Both the position numbers and the translations under genes were made by a program. Below, one piece after another: positions 38,793 through 56,780 of a DNA stretch of 64,000 nt; positions within the stretch are counted from its first letter, which is position 1, and each line of letters starts with the position of its first letter. The DNA lies in IMG/VR virus record IMGVR_UViG_3300032265_002475, positions 5-64,004 of that record. One strand, 5' to 3'. Source of the DNA: a virus. A model generated the notes under the pieces. The model did not search any database and had not been told where the DNA came from. It was given only the letters and a program-made list of their open reading frames with translations.

Positions 38793-39212
38793 CTATTCAT
38801 CATCTGGAAATAACTTATGAGGTATTTTCTTATTAAACTTCATTATTTTTTTAACTTCCTTAGGCTCGTCTATAACATAATATAAAGCTTCTTTACTTTC
38901 TTCCATTGCTTTTGTAGTACGATGATTACCATCTATTAAAAGTAACTCAGATAAATCTGTTTCTGGATTTTTAAAGGCAACAACTATACCAATAGGCTTA
39001 GAATAATCCATTTTAAGATTTTTAATCTTTTCAGGATCTACACTAGTAAATAATGAACTTGTTAAACGTATTTTACTTGGATTTAATTTATAGATTTTAT
39101 ATTTTATACCATCTGATTTAATTAAATCGTATGCTTTATCTACGTCAAAAATATAACGACCATGGTAAGCTTTAAAAATTTCTTCTTTAAGTATATTTAT
39201 TAATTTTATCAT
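38793..39212 (-). CDS. MIKL-leader protein with ParB/Srx-like nuclease domain
   Basis: MIKLINILKEEI; LLIDGNHRTTKA resembles the ParB DGHHR motif. Confidence 0.5.
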   Translation of the reverse strand: MIKLINILKEEIFKAYHGRYIFDVDKAYDLIKSDGIKYKIYKLNPSKIRLTSSLFTSVDPEKIKNLKMDYSKPIGIVVAFKNPETDLSELLLIDGNHRTTKAMEESKEALYYVIDEPKEVKKIMKFNKKIPHKLFPDDE

Positions 39213-40210
39213 TTGATTAATTCAGTTTTATCTTTATCATAATATAATTTTTTTAGCTTAAGACATTTAGAAATGTCTAAACTAATTAATTGATTACGTT
39301 CACAATTTAAACGTTCTAAATTAGGACATTTTGAAATGTCTAAAGTAGTTAATTGGTTATTAGCACAATATAATGTTTCTAAATTAGGACAATTAGAAAC
39401 ATCTAAAGTAGTTAATTGATTAGAATAACAGTATAATTCTTCTAAATTAGGTAAACGACCCAATCTAAGAGTAGTTAATTTATTACCACAACACCATATT
39501 TTTTCTACTCTAGGGTCATTAACTACTAAAGTTTTTAAATTTTTATCACTACAATATAATTTATTATTTTCATCTAACTTAAATTTAATTCTTTCACCAT
39601 CTACCGTAATACCGTAAATTGATTGATTAGTGGAAATAGGTTCCAATTCAGTTAATATAGTTTCTTTAATTAATTGGATTTTATCTTTATCGTAATTTAA
39701 ATATTCTAAATTAGAACAGTTTGAAACGTCTAAACTAGTTAATTGGTTATTAGCACACTTTAATATTTGTAAATTAGGACATTTAGAAATGTCTAAACTA
39801 GTTAATTTATTAGAATAACAGTCTAAATAATATAAATTGGGTAATATACCTAATTTTAGAGTAGTTAACTGATTTCTCCAACAAGATAATTTTACTAAAT
39901 TAGGCAAATTACCTAATTTTAGAGTAGTTAATTGATTATTTTCACAATTTAAAGCTTCTAAATTAGGCAAATTACCTAATTTTAGAGTAGTTAATTGATT
40001 TCCAAAGCAATTTATTTTTGTTACTCGTAAGTCATTAACTACTAGAGTTTTTAAATTTTTAAACTCACATTCTAAATTATTATATTTATTTAATTTAAAT
40101 TTAATCTTTTCACCATCTACCGTAATACCGTAAATTTGACTAGACAAGGCATATTCATACTCAGCTAAAATTTGTTCTCTAATAAGTTGTTTTAGTTCGT
40201 GTTTTTTCAT
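39209..40210 (-). CDS. MKK-leader leucine-rich-repeat protein (two fused leader-LRR cassettes)
   Basis: MKKHELKQLIREQIL; repeats NQLTTLKLGNLPNL.L.C..N; internal second leader IKETILTELEPISTNQSIYGITVDG. Confidence 0.7.
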   Translation of the reverse strand: MKKHELKQLIREQILAEYEYALSSQIYGITVDGEKIKFKLNKYNNLECEFKNLKTLVVNDLRVTKINCFGNQLTTLKLGNLPNLEALNCENNQLTTLKLGNLPNLVKLSCWRNQLTTLKLGILPNLYYLDCYSNKLTSLDISKCPNLQILKCANNQLTSLDVSNCSNLEYLNYDKDKIQLIKETILTELEPISTNQSIYGITVDGERIKFKLDENNKLYCSDKNLKTLVVNDPRVEKIWCCGNKLTTLRLGRLPNLEELYCYSNQLTTLDVSNCPNLETLYCANNQLTTLDISKCPNLERLNCERNQLISLDISKCLKLKKLYYDKDKTELIK

Positions 40211-43160: not shown

Positions 43161-44510
43161 TTATATTATTTCTATTCCTAAATTTTCAAGAGCTTTTTCT
43201 AAATCATTAACATAGGAATTACCTAGTCTTTCTATCTGTTTTACATATGGTCCTTCACCATCCATAGCTTTTAGTATATCGTATCCATTTGCTATATTTA
43301 ATCCATATACTTTAAGAGCTAATTGTAGTAAAAATAACCATTCTTCTGTACCTGTTTCTATTTCACCATCTTCTATAATTTCTGGATATTCTTCTCTAAT
43401 CGCTTGTTCTATTTGGTGAGATTTATCTCTATTAGAAATTGGTTGTAATTCTGTCAAAGGTTTACTAAATTTTTGTTTTTTATAATCTGAAATTATACTT
43501 ATAATTTTATTAATAAGAAGTTCTACATTAATCCCTACAGAATGTTCATCTCCAGGATTTTTAGGATTTTCTCTCCTATCTATATCTAAAAATTCATTAA
43601 AATCATCTCCTGGTACTCCTGGCTTACCTTTTAATTCATTATCAAAAATAGGATCATAAAGGCAATCTACTAAATCATCATCCCAATGATGATCAAATTC
43701 GGTCCAATTATAATTAGGTCTATCTTCCTCAGGATCACCTAATAAATCTGCATTTTCGTCAATTATGTAAAAATACTTTTCATTAGGTATTCTTTTTAAA
43801 AGCATTTTAAAACTATTACGAGGAACTGCTTGTAACTCAGCTAAAATTTGTTCTTTGATGAGTTGGGTTTTATCTTTGTTATAAATAATACTTTTTGGTT
43901 CTAAATTAGGACATTTAGAAACGTCTAAACTAGTTAACTGATTATTAACACAATTTAACCAAACTAATTTAGGACATTTTGAAAGATCTAAACTAGTTAA
44001 TTGATTATTTTTACAATTTAATGTTTTTAAATTAGGGCATTTTGAAATGTCTAAACTAGTTAATTTATTAACTTGACAATCTAAAAGTGTTAAATTAGGA
44101 CATTTTGAAATATTTAAACTCTTTAATTGATTATTAGCACAATTTAACTCTTTTAAATTAGGACATTTAGAAACGTCTAAACTAGTTAACTGATTATCAT
44201 GACACCATAAATATTCTAAATTAGGTAGACTACCTAGTTTAAGAGTAGTTAATTGGTTGTGATAACAATATATTCCTTTTACTTGTGGATTATTTACTAT
44301 TAAAGTTTTTAACTCTCCAACCCATTCAGATAATTTATCTTCATCCTGATATAAATCATATGTGTAATTTAATATACCATCTTCATCTAACTCTAATTTA
44401 ATCTTTTCACCATTTACAGTAATACCGTAAATTTGTTTATTAACAGCAACAGGTTCTAACTCAGCTAAAATTTGTTCTTTTATAAGTTGTTTTAACTCAG
44501 ATTGTTTCAT
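43161..44510 (-). CDS. MKK-leader LRR protein fused in frame to a second leader plus C-terminal domain homologous to 44516-44866 and 48165-48404
   Basis: ...IIYNKDKTQLIKEQILAELQAVPRNSFKMLLKRIPNEKYFYIIDENADL... then YPEIIEDGEIETGTEEW. Confidence 0.65.
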   Translation of the reverse strand: MKQSELKQLIKEQILAELEPVAVNKQIYGITVNGEKIKLELDEDGILNYTYDLYQDEDKLSEWVGELKTLIVNNPQVKGIYCYHNQLTTLKLGSLPNLEYLWCHDNQLTSLDVSKCPNLKELNCANNQLKSLNISKCPNLTLLDCQVNKLTSLDISKCPNLKTLNCKNNQLTSLDLSKCPKLVWLNCVNNQLTSLDVSKCPNLEPKSIIYNKDKTQLIKEQILAELQAVPRNSFKMLLKRIPNEKYFYIIDENADLLGDPEEDRPNYNWTEFDHHWDDDLVDCLYDPIFDNELKGKPGVPGDDFNEFLDIDRRENPKNPGDEHSVGINVELLINKIISIISDYKKQKFSKPLTELQPISNRDKSHQIEQAIREEYPEIIEDGEIETGTEEWLFLLQLALKVYGLNIANGYDILKAMDGEGPYVKQIERLGNSYVNDLEKALENLGIEII

Positions 44511-50231: not shown

Positions 50232-50294
50232 TAGGCAAAGTGAGAATTGAACTCACATTATCGCAATATCACACAAGTAAGGTGCTATTTACCC
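50232..50294 (-). ncRNA. short tRNA-like element (acceptor + T-arm, lacks a canonical D-arm)
   Basis: rc GGGTAAA..GTGAG-TTCAATT-CTCAC-TTTGCCT-A: T-arm plus 7-bp acceptor with two G-U pairs; only 63 nt. Confidence 0.2.
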
Positions 50295-54878: not shown

Positions 54879-55715
54879 TTACTTAATTGGTAAATTAAAA
54901 TTAATACCATTACCCATCTGATATTGTGGTAATACACCATTCCACTTCTCAATTGCTATTTGTTGTAACAACATAGGTGTGATAGCTGTCTGTTTCAGTC
55001 TATATGATTCAGCTTGAGCTTTAGCTGTTGCTAACATTGCATCTGCATCACCTTGCGCTGTTGCTACTTTAATTTTAGCTTGAGCTTCTGCTGTTTTTAC
55101 TTGATTTTCAGCCATTAAAGCTGCTTGAACTGCATTATTCTTAGCTATGATTGCATTCTTAAATGATTCCGGATAGCCTAAATTAGACGTTAATTGGCTG
55201 ATTGTAAAACCTTCCTTAGTTAAATTTGAATCTAATTTAGCACGCACCTTTATCTCAAATTCTTGACGATTAGACACTAAATCTTCGGCAGTATAAGCAT
55301 TGGCAGTCATACGAAATGCATCATAAATAGTTGTTTTCATAAAACCATCCTCAATGTCTTCTAAATCTCTACGATATTTAGCAAAGATATAAGGTACTTG
55401 TTCCCTTTTAACTGAATAATTCACAATAGGTGATACATGAAATTCACTACCATCCTTTGAGTTTACTACAAATGAGTTGCCATCTTTATATTCTTTGTGT
55501 TGCATAAAAGTTGGAAATTCATAAATCTTTGTTGAGATTGGATTGTAAAATACCCACCCTGTACACTCCGTGATACCATCAATACCTTTGTTGGTTCCAT
55601 ACAAATTTACTTTAATACCTACATGACCAGCGTCAATACGCTCACACGAATTAAATACCATAATTGTAAACATAAATGCTACAATTGCTCCTAAGACTAA
55701 TTTTACTTTGTTCAT
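54879..55715 (-). CDS. SPFH / band-7 (prohibitin-stomatin-like) membrane protein
   Basis: N-terminal TM; Ala/Gln/Lys-rich C-terminal helix AEAQAKIKVATAQGDADAMLATAKAQAESYRLKQTA typical of SPFH. Confidence 0.55.
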   Translation of the reverse strand: MNKVKLVLGAIVAFMFTIMVFNSCERIDAGHVGIKVNLYGTNKGIDGITECTGWVFYNPISTKIYEFPTFMQHKEYKDGNSFVVNSKDGSEFHVSPIVNYSVKREQVPYIFAKYRRDLEDIEDGFMKTTIYDAFRMTANAYTAEDLVSNRQEFEIKVRAKLDSNLTKEGFTISQLTSNLGYPESFKNAIIAKNNAVQAALMAENQVKTAEAQAKIKVATAQGDADAMLATAKAQAESYRLKQTAITPMLLQQIAIEKWNGVLPQYQMGNGINFNLPIK

Positions 55716-56264: not shown

Positions 56265-56483
56265 TTATTTTGTGTTTAAAACTTTAATAATTAATTTTAT
56301 CAATTCAAATTCTCCAATTCCAACAACTAACCACCACAACAGTAAACATACAACTCCTGCTAAATTTACTACTGTATCTCTTTCGTTAAGCATTTTTAAA
56401 ATGTCATCTTGACCTGCAAATCCGGAAAATATTACTGATATCATTCCAATAACCAGTAATGAAATGTAAATTATTTTTTTCAT
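56265..56483 (-). CDS. small two-TM membrane protein (start at internal MKKIIYISLL to avoid the tRNA-like gene)
   Basis: listed ORF 56265-56552 overlaps the tRNA-like gene. Confidence 0.4.
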   Translation of the reverse strand: MKKIIYISLLVIGMISVIFSGFAGQDDILKMLNERDTVVNLAGVVCLLLWWLVVGIGEFELIKLIIKVLNTK

Positions 56484-56500: not shown

Positions 56501-56602
56501 TAGTCAGGACAGGATTCGAACCTGTAATGATGCGTGTCTGTCCGTACATCAACGTTAGGGTTGCGACCCCTTCTCGCGTCTTGCCAATTCCGCCACCTGA
56601 CT
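56501..56602 (-). tRNA. tRNA-like gene, 101 nt, class-II-like (Leu-type D arm); anticodon uncertain (candidate loop GUCGCAA)
   Basis: rc AGTCAGG-TG-GCGGAATTGGCAAGACGCG...ACAGG-TTCGAAT-CCTGT-CCTGACT-A: perfect acceptor, canonical T-arm, D-arm nearly identical to E. coli tRNA-Leu; too long for a standard tRNA. Confidence 0.5.
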
Positions 56603-56780
56603 ATTTTACTCTTATTCTCCTTTCTAATGAAAAATAAAAATCCCGTTATTATGGTTATGACTGCCATACTAAAGGTAGCTGTTTTTGCAGCTGAAAAAGT
56701 CATCAATTACTATTTCAGGTAAGAACTGAAATACTCTTTTTTCTTTTGTTTTTATTTTGTGTATCATCTATATTATTTAT

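Follow-up and report, generated by a model that had tools for sequence, protein, structure and literature searches.

In transfer-messenger RNA (tmRNA; RF00023), a domain resembling the acceptor and T arms of a transfer RNA (tRNA) encloses a large insertion that takes the place of the anticodon arm, while the TMERs of murine gammaherpesvirus 68 use a tRNA-like unit to deliver a functional RNA that is attached to it. Bacteriophage T4 encodes two small stable RNAs, C and D (rnaC and rnaD), which lie in its tRNA cluster, are matured together with the tRNAs and have no known function, and in the bacterial Y RNA YrlA the topology of a tRNA is reversed, with a closed acceptor-like helix and with both termini of the RNA located in the Ro-binding stem. 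The engineered 'tRNA scaffold' of Ponchon and Dardel retains the acceptor, T and D arms but has a cargo where the anticodon arm would be, following the logic that the chimera is precisely processed by the tRNA machinery and shielded from nucleases (PMC3753655). An element of this general shape is described here from positions 56501–56602, on the minus strand, of a 64,000-nt stretch of viral DNA (positions 5 to 64,004 of IMG/VR record IMGVR_UViG_3300032265_002475), which is referred to at its full length as the window.

The locus is read, with a probability of about 0.6, as a non-decoding, tRNA-shaped RNA in which a constant phage frame derived from leucine tRNA (tRNA-Leu) carries an exchangeable functional cargo, making it a natural tRNA scaffold. 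The element belongs to a family of viral elements that lack decoding features, in which the paired positions of the frame covary and in which the interiors are conserved amid unrelated surroundings in some phages and replaced outright in others. The comparison to a scaffold is drawn because the parts of the tRNA that are kept equal those retained in the engineered construct.

Results

The AGUCAGG-frame family

The family was seeded with the exact 23-mer ACAGGTTCGAATCCTGTCCTGAC, which covers the T arm and the 3' strand of the acceptor stem, in IMG/VR contigs, and the figures given here are for the matches listed. Exact copies of the 23-mer occur in at least 120 viral contigs, with at least 150 copies in total and up to seven copies within 5 kb (locus L010). 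On the 5' side of nearly every copy is the sequence AGTCAGG-TG-GCGGAAT(T)GGTAGACGC, corresponding to a constant acceptor strand and D arm, while past approximately position 26 the base composition across the family is random-like. The AGUCAGG heptamer is present in 131–137 of the 138 distinct family copies. Total length ranges from 70 to ~180 nt (median, 104 nt), such that the 102 nt of the window copy are typical, and the interiors (~20–130 nt) are highly diverse, with 143 interiors forming 117 clusters. The window copy shares with the family the acceptor AGUCAGG/CCUGACU, A73-C74, the T arm ACAGGUUCGAAUCCUGU, a Leu-type D arm and an unrelated interior; its own 50-nt interior has no relative among the 143 family interiors or in viral contigs. 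Two members (L095, ~3894, plus strand; L046, ~2787, minus strand) have an extra hairpin in the D loop, between GGAAT and TGGTAGACGC, besides the variable interior.

The frame is virus-specific. A set of bacterial and archaeal genomes with one genome per species (185,579 species) contained 17 occurrences of the 23-mer, all of which were on contigs of metagenome-assembled genomes with inconsistent taxonomy, several of them assigned to the Bacteroidota, and none of the 50,697 GenBank phage records contained both halves of the frame. A host tRNA or the relic of an attachment site was rejected as a source of the frame based on its absence from isolate genomes and on the conservation of both frame halves, as opposed to the 3' half alone. 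The genes neighboring the copies include members of the DUF932, terminase, phosphoesterase and homing endonuclease families. Phage-encoded tmRNAs are present at two of the family loci, a permuted tmRNA (RF04321, 55.9 bits) at L231:3650–3884 (plus strand), ~35 nt before the family copy, and a standard tmRNA (68.8 bits) at L059:553–939 (minus strand), beside the family copy. A weak tmRNA-like match of 123 nt (18.9 bits) was also present at L047:1916–2038 (plus strand).

Frame structure and flank signature

A wider search used the D arm alone as the probe, avoiding the bias of the exact 3' string. The resulting matches split cleanly into genuine tRNA-Leu genes and a non-canonical group. In the genuine tRNA-Leu genes, the middle is 29–36 nt long, the acceptor begins with G1 and the anticodon loop is a canonical Leu loop (CUNAG/CUNAA-type), while the non-canonical group has middles of 41–297 nt and is dominated by the AGTCAGG acceptor. 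Several other acceptors occur in the non-canonical group, including GCTTTGG/CCAAAGC, GGACAGG/CCTGTCC, GTCAAGG/CCTTGAC, GAACGGG/CCCGTTC and further ones, and all of these are correctly paired. Across 52 distinct non-canonical frames, 10 of the 15 pairs were changed on both sides, with none of 500 shuffles reaching the observed measures. The conserved unit is an RNA structure, not a DNA motif. The nucleotides of the tertiary core are also conserved in the family (U8, A14, A15, G18G19, the UUC of the T loop and A58), and a U directly before the T stem, the equivalent of tRNA position 48, is present in 116 of 137 family copies.

The positions flanking the frame carry U(−1) in 85%, A(−4) in 66%, A73 in 91% and C74 in 97% of family copies, and CCA is encoded in 3 of 138. 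Bacterial RNase P favors U(−1) and A(−4). The ordinary tRNAs of the same contigs (n = 191) carry U(−1) in 69% of cases, A(−4) in 63% and N73-C74, followed by A or T, in 93%, with C75-A76 not encoded in those 93% of ordinary phage tRNA genes (loci L001–L120). Because the flanks of the family share the signature of the ordinary tRNAs, its members are most simply explained as being matured by the enzymes that also act on real tRNAs. One group of related phages has a Bacteroidota-type −7 box (TAnnTTTG) whose end is ~5 nt ahead of position +1.

The identity elements of leucyl-tRNA synthetase (LeuRS) in E. coli are A73 together with U8-A14, A15-U48, G18-U55 and G19-C56, and for the Aquifex enzyme the deletion of the whole anticodon arm lowers affinity only 2.5-fold (PMC2377443). 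All of the nucleotides of this identity set are present in the window element, which has no leucine anticodon (NAG or NAA) in a canonical arm. The parts kept in the family, the acceptor helix, the elbow formed by the D and T arms and A73, are the parts that RNase P, EF-Tu, LeuRS and the enzymes of 3' processing and CCA addition recognize.

Cargo conservation and exchange

The cargo type AUGAAUAAAGGUUAAUAGUAA...GCUCAUAAGUUAUCAU was found in 36 contigs, in one case combined with a different acceptor stem. For 28 copies of this type, identity across the 300-nt flanks was at the level of shuffled sequence (0.60), while the cargos themselves had a median identity of 0.88 and a minimum of 0.81 in the 78 pairs for which both flanks were unrelated. 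Across the family, the G+C content of the cargos (41.5%) is higher than that of the flanks (36.4%; p = 3e-7). A cargo common to L011 (~8698, minus strand) and L039 (~13869, plus strand) has kept the hairpin loop GCUGGGUAA on a fully changed stem (GUUGAA/UUCAAC and GAGCAA/UUGCUC), a clear compensatory change within a cargo.

The interiors are also replaced as units. L010 and L031 are 99–100% identical on both sides of one copy and have wholly different interiors, with the differing stretch (94 nt vs 44 nt) bounded by AGTCAGGTGG and ACAGGTTCG. Of the locus pairs with both 150-nt flanks at least 85% identical, 14 of 30 have unrelated interiors, and at a single syntenic site in six related phages there were five different interiors. 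The breakpoints of exchange fall inside the conserved frame. Homing endonucleases of the family phrog_314, e.g., a 218-amino-acid protein at L109:988–1645 (minus strand; E = 9e-10) with a GIY-YIG-like N-terminus, are found within the fetched flanks of 12 loci and could drive the exchange of interiors, though they are far from universal.

Two further ideas about the cargos were considered and rejected. A spacer-like origin was not supported, as 262 cargos compared to 2.5 Mb of related phage DNA matched only tRNA and tRNA-like genes, nor was a role as an antisense regulator of the phage's own genes, as the window cargo is complementary to the 64-kb window over 10 nt at best, equal to the mode of shuffled sequences.

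Decoding potential of the family

ARAGORN accepts 32 of 142 family copies as tRNAs, with anticodons scattered over many amino acids; among these calls are A34 anticodons as well as 2-nt and 4-nt loops. In 3 of 92 copies, the interior has near its start a hairpin whose 7-nt loop contains U33 and R37, compared to 2.8 ± 1.6 for shuffled interiors, and the window copy is one of the three. Scores against the general tRNA model (RF00005) were 26–41 bits for family copies vs 43–64 bits for the ordinary tRNAs of the same loci. Anticodon-like loops are thus no more frequent than shuffling of the inserts would produce, and the family therefore does not decode.

The element at 56501–56602

On the minus strand, where RNA position i corresponds to window coordinate 56603 − i, the element (56602–56501) has the sequence AGUCAGG-UG-GCGGAAUUGGCAAGACGC-GAGA-AGGGGUCGCAACCCU-AACGU-UGAUGUACGGACAGACACGCAUCA-UU-ACAGGUUCGAAUCCUGU-CCUGACU-A. 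Its length is 102 nt when the discriminator is included and the D stem and T stem are separated by 50 nt, correcting the 101 nt and ~55 nt given by a first-pass annotation made from the sequence alone. The G+C content is 53% vs 27% in the flanks, with the cargo alone at 52%. Following U(−1) at 56603, the 5' strand of the acceptor, AGUCAGG (positions 1–7; 56596–56602), pairs perfectly over 7 bp with the 3' strand, CCUGACU (positions 95–101; 56502–56508), and the discriminator A73 (56501) and an encoded C74 (56500) complete the 3' end, with no CCA encoded. U8 and G9 precede the Leu-type D arm (positions 10–27; 56576–56593 in the Rfam alignment), which consists of a 3-bp GCG/CGC stem and the 12-nt loop GAAUUGGCAAGA and possesses A14, A15 and G18G19. 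This D arm is one substitution and one inserted base apart from GGCGGAAUUGGUAGACGC of the genuine tRNA-Leu genes collected here and, likewise, one substitution and one inserted base apart from the family consensus. The T arm ACAGG-UUCGAAU-CCUGU (positions 78–94; 56509–56525) is preceded by UU (positions 76–77; 56526–56527), of which U77 is the equivalent of tRNA position 48 and the partner of A15. The perfect acceptor stem, the T arm with GGTTCGAATCC and the D arm nearly identical to that of E. coli tRNA-Leu had all been recognized in the first-pass annotation and are confirmed.

Between the two arms, the cargo is composed of two hairpins of 15 and 24 nt. A linker, GAGA (positions 28–31; 56572–56575), occupies the place of the single nucleotide 26 of a tRNA and leads into hairpin 1 (positions 32–46; 56557–56571), which has two possible registers, one pairing AGGG/CCCU around the loop GUCGCAA and the other pairing GGGGU/ACCCU around the loop CGCA. 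The former register had been proposed previously as the only 7-nt loop with U33, and the 4-bp stem, the loop and the segment of ~30 nt that follows are present as described, but RNAfold favors the CGCA register as the minimum-energy structure; the GUCGCAA register is limited to the 4-bp stem by an A-A mismatch at the fifth position. A second linker, AACGU (positions 47–51; 56552–56556), is followed by hairpin 2 (positions 52–75; 56528–56551), with the predicted stem UGAUGU/GCAUCA and a 12-nt A/C-rich loop, ACGGACAGACAC. The distance from hairpin 1 to the T stem is 31 nt. As a whole, the window element folds with z = −1.06 relative to shuffled sequences.

With relaxed filters, Rfam model RF00005 matches the element end to end at exactly 56501–56602 on the minus strand, covering model positions 1–71 with 36.2 bits (gathering threshold, 29); the E-value is 6e-4 when the whole 64-kb window is compared to all 4227 families. 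This match sits on the boundaries proposed by the first-pass annotation, though it is obtained only by inserting 26 nt in the variable region and allowing two extra nucleotides past the D arm. Beyond this score, the exact recurrence of the 23-mer in at least 120 viral contigs, nearly always behind a constant 5' half, is the much stronger sign that the element is no product of chance. With default filters there was no Rfam match in the window. ARAGORN in its default mode reported no tRNAs in the window, with or without the intron search, its mitochondrial and tmRNA modes likewise found nothing in the window, and at 70–80% stringency it produced conflicting calls, either Val-AAC with different boundaries or Val-GAC with a 28-nt 'intron'. 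A canonical tRNA with other boundaries was rejected, as all stringent ARAGORN modes were empty and the relaxed calls contradicted each other. Of the features of a canonical tRNA, the element has the 7-bp acceptor with a discriminator, the D arm with G18G19 and the 5-bp T stem with a UUCRANY loop, but in place of an anticodon arm with a 5-bp stem and 7-nt loop 1 nt past the D stem there is a 4-nt gap and a 4-bp stem. The variable regions of class II tRNAs reach ~21–23 nt, and the 31 nt of the element are outside of this range.

The more specialized tRNA-like classes fared no better. A selenocysteine tRNA (tRNA-Sec; RF01852), one of the options raised in the first-pass annotation, fails in every defining feature, as the element has a 7/5 and not an 8/5 arrangement, a 3-bp and not a 6-bp D stem, a 12-nt and not a 4-nt D loop, and no UCA; Rfam listed no match to RF01852 at the locus. 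A tmRNA was rejected based on the U-A pair at position 3-70, the presence of a D stem, the 50-nt cargo without a reading frame and the negative results of both ARAGORN -m and Rfam.

A metagenome scan for GGTCGCAACCC, followed by GGTTCGAATCC 20–50 nt later, returned 13 loci. Two of these (L269 and L275) have a window-like layout, in which a Leu-type D arm and a linker precede AGGGG-UCGCAA-CCCU, a second hairpin and the T arm. Their acceptor stems differ from that of the window element, L275 encodes CCA, and the linker after the D arm is 5–6 nt vs 4 nt in the window. Hairpin 2 is GUGUAC/GUACAC with the loop GCCAACAAACAA in L269 and UGGAUG/CAUCCA with the loop GCCAACAGA in L275, such that across the window element and these two loci the stem sequences differ while pairing is kept, and the loops are A/C-rich. 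In both loci, the CGCA-loop register of hairpin 1 extends to 7 bp plus 2–4 outer pairs. The independent evidence from L269 and L275 is confined to the conservation of the layout and the stem changes of hairpin 2. At two other loci (L267 and L268), GGGG-UCGCAA-CCCC forms part of an 89-nt element identified by ARAGORN as tRNA-Ala(cgc).

Phage and genomic setting

The phage is tailed, with ~26% G+C and essentially all genes on the minus strand. No nucleotide relatives were found among GenBank phages, and the nearest cultured relatives are Flavobacterium myophages, with 47% amino-acid identity in the baseplate wedge protein. The phage is known from metagenome assemblies only. The sole other assembly of it, an ENA metagenome assembly, is 100% identical over the element region, so no microevolution near the element was seen. 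The 337-nt gap around the element was left empty by gene callers; the element is on the same strand as the surrounding small genes and is followed by a gene for a 72-amino-acid membrane protein with its ATG at 56483, 17 nt past the discriminator A (56501). No promoter stands out directly upstream of the element, and no RNA-processing enzymes were found among the window open reading frames (ORFs) scanned. In the intergenic leader ~55–100 nt upstream (56657–56703, minus strand), nested inverted repeats are visible by eye, with ATGACT (56703–56698) and AGTCAT (56662–56657) around AGCTG (56692–56688) and CAGCT (56681–56677), followed by a T-rich run; a consensus scan of this leader found only a terminator-like site at 56661–56678 on the opposite strand.

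A second non-canonical tRNA-like element is present in the window at 50232–50294 (minus strand). This element is 63 nt in length with a discriminator A, has the acceptor GGGUAAA/UUUGCCU (two G-U pairs) and the T arm GUGAG-UUCAAUU-CUCAC, and has 31 nt between acceptor and T arm, with no normal D or anticodon arm. It scores 28.4 bits against RF00005, just below the gathering threshold of 29, and no relatives were found in viral contigs.

Located 800 nt downstream of the 56501–56602 element, a Band_7/'lipoprotein' gene (phrog_200; 54879–55715, minus strand) has 61–75% amino-acid identity to genes in 19 otherwise different viral contigs, including jumbo-sized ones, which suggests that it is a mobile accessory gene. 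When synteny was followed through this Band_7-like gene, only one of the 19 loci had a family copy, and that copy carries a different cargo. Two further genes (39209–40210 and 43161–44510, both on the minus strand) encode proteins that largely consist of leucine-rich repeats (LRR_4; E = 1e-31 and 6e-25), unusual in a phage, and may be receptor-binding or host-interaction proteins.

Discussion

As a natural scaffold, the element would be transcribed along with the surrounding same-strand small genes. Host RNase P would cut between U(−1) and A(+1), the 3' end would be trimmed after C74 and CCA would then be completed, with the frame predicted to fold into the tRNA elbow and acceptor helix and so to define and protect both ends, as in the engineered construct. 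The RNA may also be leucylated by host LeuRS, because the LeuRS identity nucleotides checked are kept and the enzyme does not need an anticodon arm. The cargo would be the specific functional part, a module that may bind host or rival factors under diversifying pressure; binding modules are proposed because cargos are conserved despite unrelated flanks, yet whole interiors are swapped between near-identical phages.

Several lines of evidence weigh against this interpretation. Transcription, processing, CCA addition and charging are all steps that we infer. Frames were extracted only if at least 6 of the 7 acceptor pairs formed, making the percentage of paired positions partly circular, though not the diversity of pair types, and the exact 23-mer search partly creates the apparent invariance of the 3' frame. 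The structural signal of the cargos is modest, with interiors folding only somewhat better than shuffled sequence (mean z = −0.61, p = 3e-9), and the best-sampled cargo type is too conserved for covariation statistics, such that the comparison of flank and cargo identity was used instead. No shared k-mers beyond shuffled controls were detected among 116 non-redundant cargos, and a permissive Rfam search of the locus, the whole window and 20 family loci for known RNA families returned tRNA matches only. The window cargo has two or three distant relatives, retrieved by a search that fixed hairpin 1, so that its conservation is partly circular. There is also no linked partner protein, the commonest neighbor family being present in only 17 of ~138 loci. 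The 30 flank-matched pairs are not independent and represent approximately six replacement events, and recombination between the repeated frames could replace interiors as a neutral side effect.

Alternatively, the frame could itself be the effector and the cargo secondary, leaving the interior free to vary. Such a leucine-accepting tRNA mimic could titrate or exploit host factors that recognize a tRNA by its acceptor and elbow half alone, e.g., LeuRS, EF-Tu, RNase P, the CCA-adding enzyme, tRNA-targeting toxins or aminoacyl-tRNA-dependent transferases. The conservation of the frame far above the rest of the element, the retention of the LeuRS elements A73, U8-A14, A15-U48 and G18G19, the dispensability of the anticodon arm for leucylation (PMC2377443), the lack of a motif common to the cargos and their modest structural signal all fit this explanation. 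It is nonetheless unlikely, as it leaves unexplained the 88% cargo identity amid unrelated flanks, the higher G+C of the cargos than of the flanks, the presence of up to seven copies with different cargos, and the retention of interiors of 50–130 nt. The frame could instead serve as a processing signal comparable to the 't-elements' of plant mitochondria, with RNase P and 3' nucleases cutting the transcript so that the downstream mRNA gains a short A-rich leader and the interior is irrelevant. Tying the family to such a function are its flank signature, which is that of real tRNAs, the known role of tRNA-like t-elements in shaping mRNA ends (PMC1920247) and the start of a same-strand ORF within 30 nt downstream of 32% of copies, compared to 13% of tRNAs and 16% of random positions. 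This enrichment is approximately two-fold, as expected from dense gene packing, and the downstream genes are mutually unrelated, on which grounds functional coupling to the downstream ORF was rejected. Many copies also lie within tRNA arrays, and a pure processing signal needs neither a conserved Leu-type D arm and A73 nor cargos that are conserved and exchangeable, making this explanation improbable.

Two explanations would return the locus to the ordinary tRNAs, in keeping with one suggestion of the first-pass annotation, a class II tRNA that contains an insertion or intron. A true but unusual class II tRNA would have the anticodon CGC, with hairpin 2 as an oversized variable arm, and, if it had Leu identity, would be a missense or 'poison' tRNA that delivers Leu to GCG (Ala) codons, or would otherwise supply Ala. 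Rfam aligns the element to the tRNA model end to end, the loop GUCGCAA has U33, A37 and A38 and is retained in L269 and L275, the related hairpin of L267 and L268 is called as tRNA-Ala(cgc) in an 89-nt element, and anticodons other than Leu or Ser on class II bodies have precedents in nev-tRNAs (PMC3333845) and allo-tRNAs (PMC5389517). Despite this, the retention of the loop in L269 and L275 is circular, as they were retrieved by fixing it, and in both the lower-energy CGCA register extends to 7 bp plus outer pairs. ARAGORN by default rejects the element with or without introns, there are 4 nt and not 1 after the D stem, the stem is 4 bp and the variable region 31 nt, anticodon-like loops are at chance across the family (3 of 92, the window included), and GCG accounts for only 29 of 17,655 codons in this phage (1.6 per 1000), so that there is little chance of a decoding role. 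Least credible of these proposals is that a tRNA-Leu gene is decaying as a pseudogene or is split by an intron or mobile insertion. The D arm and discriminator are Leu-like, and tRNA-Leu genes are classic hosts of group I introns, but the frame is intact in hundreds of copies and 53% G+C in 27% surroundings is the opposite of decay. A group I intron (RF00028) was rejected given an interior of only 50 nt, no Rfam intron match at the locus or in relatives with inserts of 150–300 nt, and an ARAGORN intron mode that gives no convincing tRNA; internal deletion of the element also restored no Leu, Ser or Tyr anticodon arm. The remaining option of the first-pass annotation, a tRNA-like RNA with another role, is the one that the evidence favors.

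A broader and more tentative proposal is that the natural scaffold acts in phages of the Bacteroidota and other aquatic bacteria as a form of natural 'RNA display', in which a large pool of structured RNA modules on a universal tRNA-Leu chassis, processed and perhaps leucylated by host enzymes, would be shuffled by recombination at the conserved frame to form an RNA-based counter-defense arsenal, similar in its logic to cassette arrays. Each module might then neutralize or hijack a different host or competitor factor, e.g., through mimicry of a CRISPR repeat, a toxin substrate or a protein-binding site. If the scaffold interpretation is true, there is a large class of phage non-coding RNA that is invisible to standard annotation, because both ARAGORN and default Rfam miss the window copy. 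The cargos would represent a catalogue of small structured RNAs selected in phage-host conflict, and thus candidate inhibitors or regulators, and the frame would be a natural chassis optimized for the Bacteroidota that could serve RNA expression there.

Comparison with known systems

Mimicry of tRNAs is itself known; what appears to be new is that a fixed frame is paired with a large set of mutually unrelated interiors that are conserved and can be swapped. No prior description of the family was found in the searchable literature, the coverage of which is incomplete, and Rfam 15 has no family for the phage frame. A screen of IMG/VR for structured RNAs mentions only a few 'tRNA or tRNA-like' candidates, which overlap ARAGORN calls (PMC10690425). 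Compared to tmRNA, which has alanine identity (G3-U70), no D stem, a tag ORF, pseudoknots and a length of ~200–360 nt, the phage element has a normal D arm, A73, no G3-U70 and a 50-nt cargo without a reading frame. The T4 RNAs C and D can be likened to it by description only, and no family with a constant frame and hypervariable cargo is known for them.

YrlA (PMC4201824) mimics the D/T elbow and the acceptor, has a different functional helix in place of the anticodon arm and is present in some phages, whereas the phage element has its ends at the acceptor stem and no linked Ro/Rsr gene. The nev-tRNAs of nematodes (PMC3333845) and the allo-tRNAs (PMC5389517) resemble the family in their Leu/Ser-type body, long variable arm and mismatched anticodons; however, they have canonical anticodon arms of 5 bp with 7-nt loops and decode, while the phage family has no enrichment of anticodon loops. 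Plant mitochondrial t-elements (PMC1920247) have tRNA-like folds that are used for recognition by RNase P and RNase Z and not for decoding. For both t-elements and TMERs the functional RNA or mRNA is outside of the tRNA-like fold, while in the phage family the cargo is embedded inside.

The likeness to the engineered 'tRNA scaffold' lies in the architecture and, as it would apply to the phage family, in the logic of processing and protection. The engineered scaffold was built in the laboratory from human tRNA-Lys3 or E. coli tRNA-Met, while the phage family is natural and Leu-derived, extends the replacement to the variable region and in occasional cases to the D arm, and comprises a whole population of exchangeable cargos. 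If this interpretation is true, phages reached the 'tRNA scaffold' trick long before biotechnologists.

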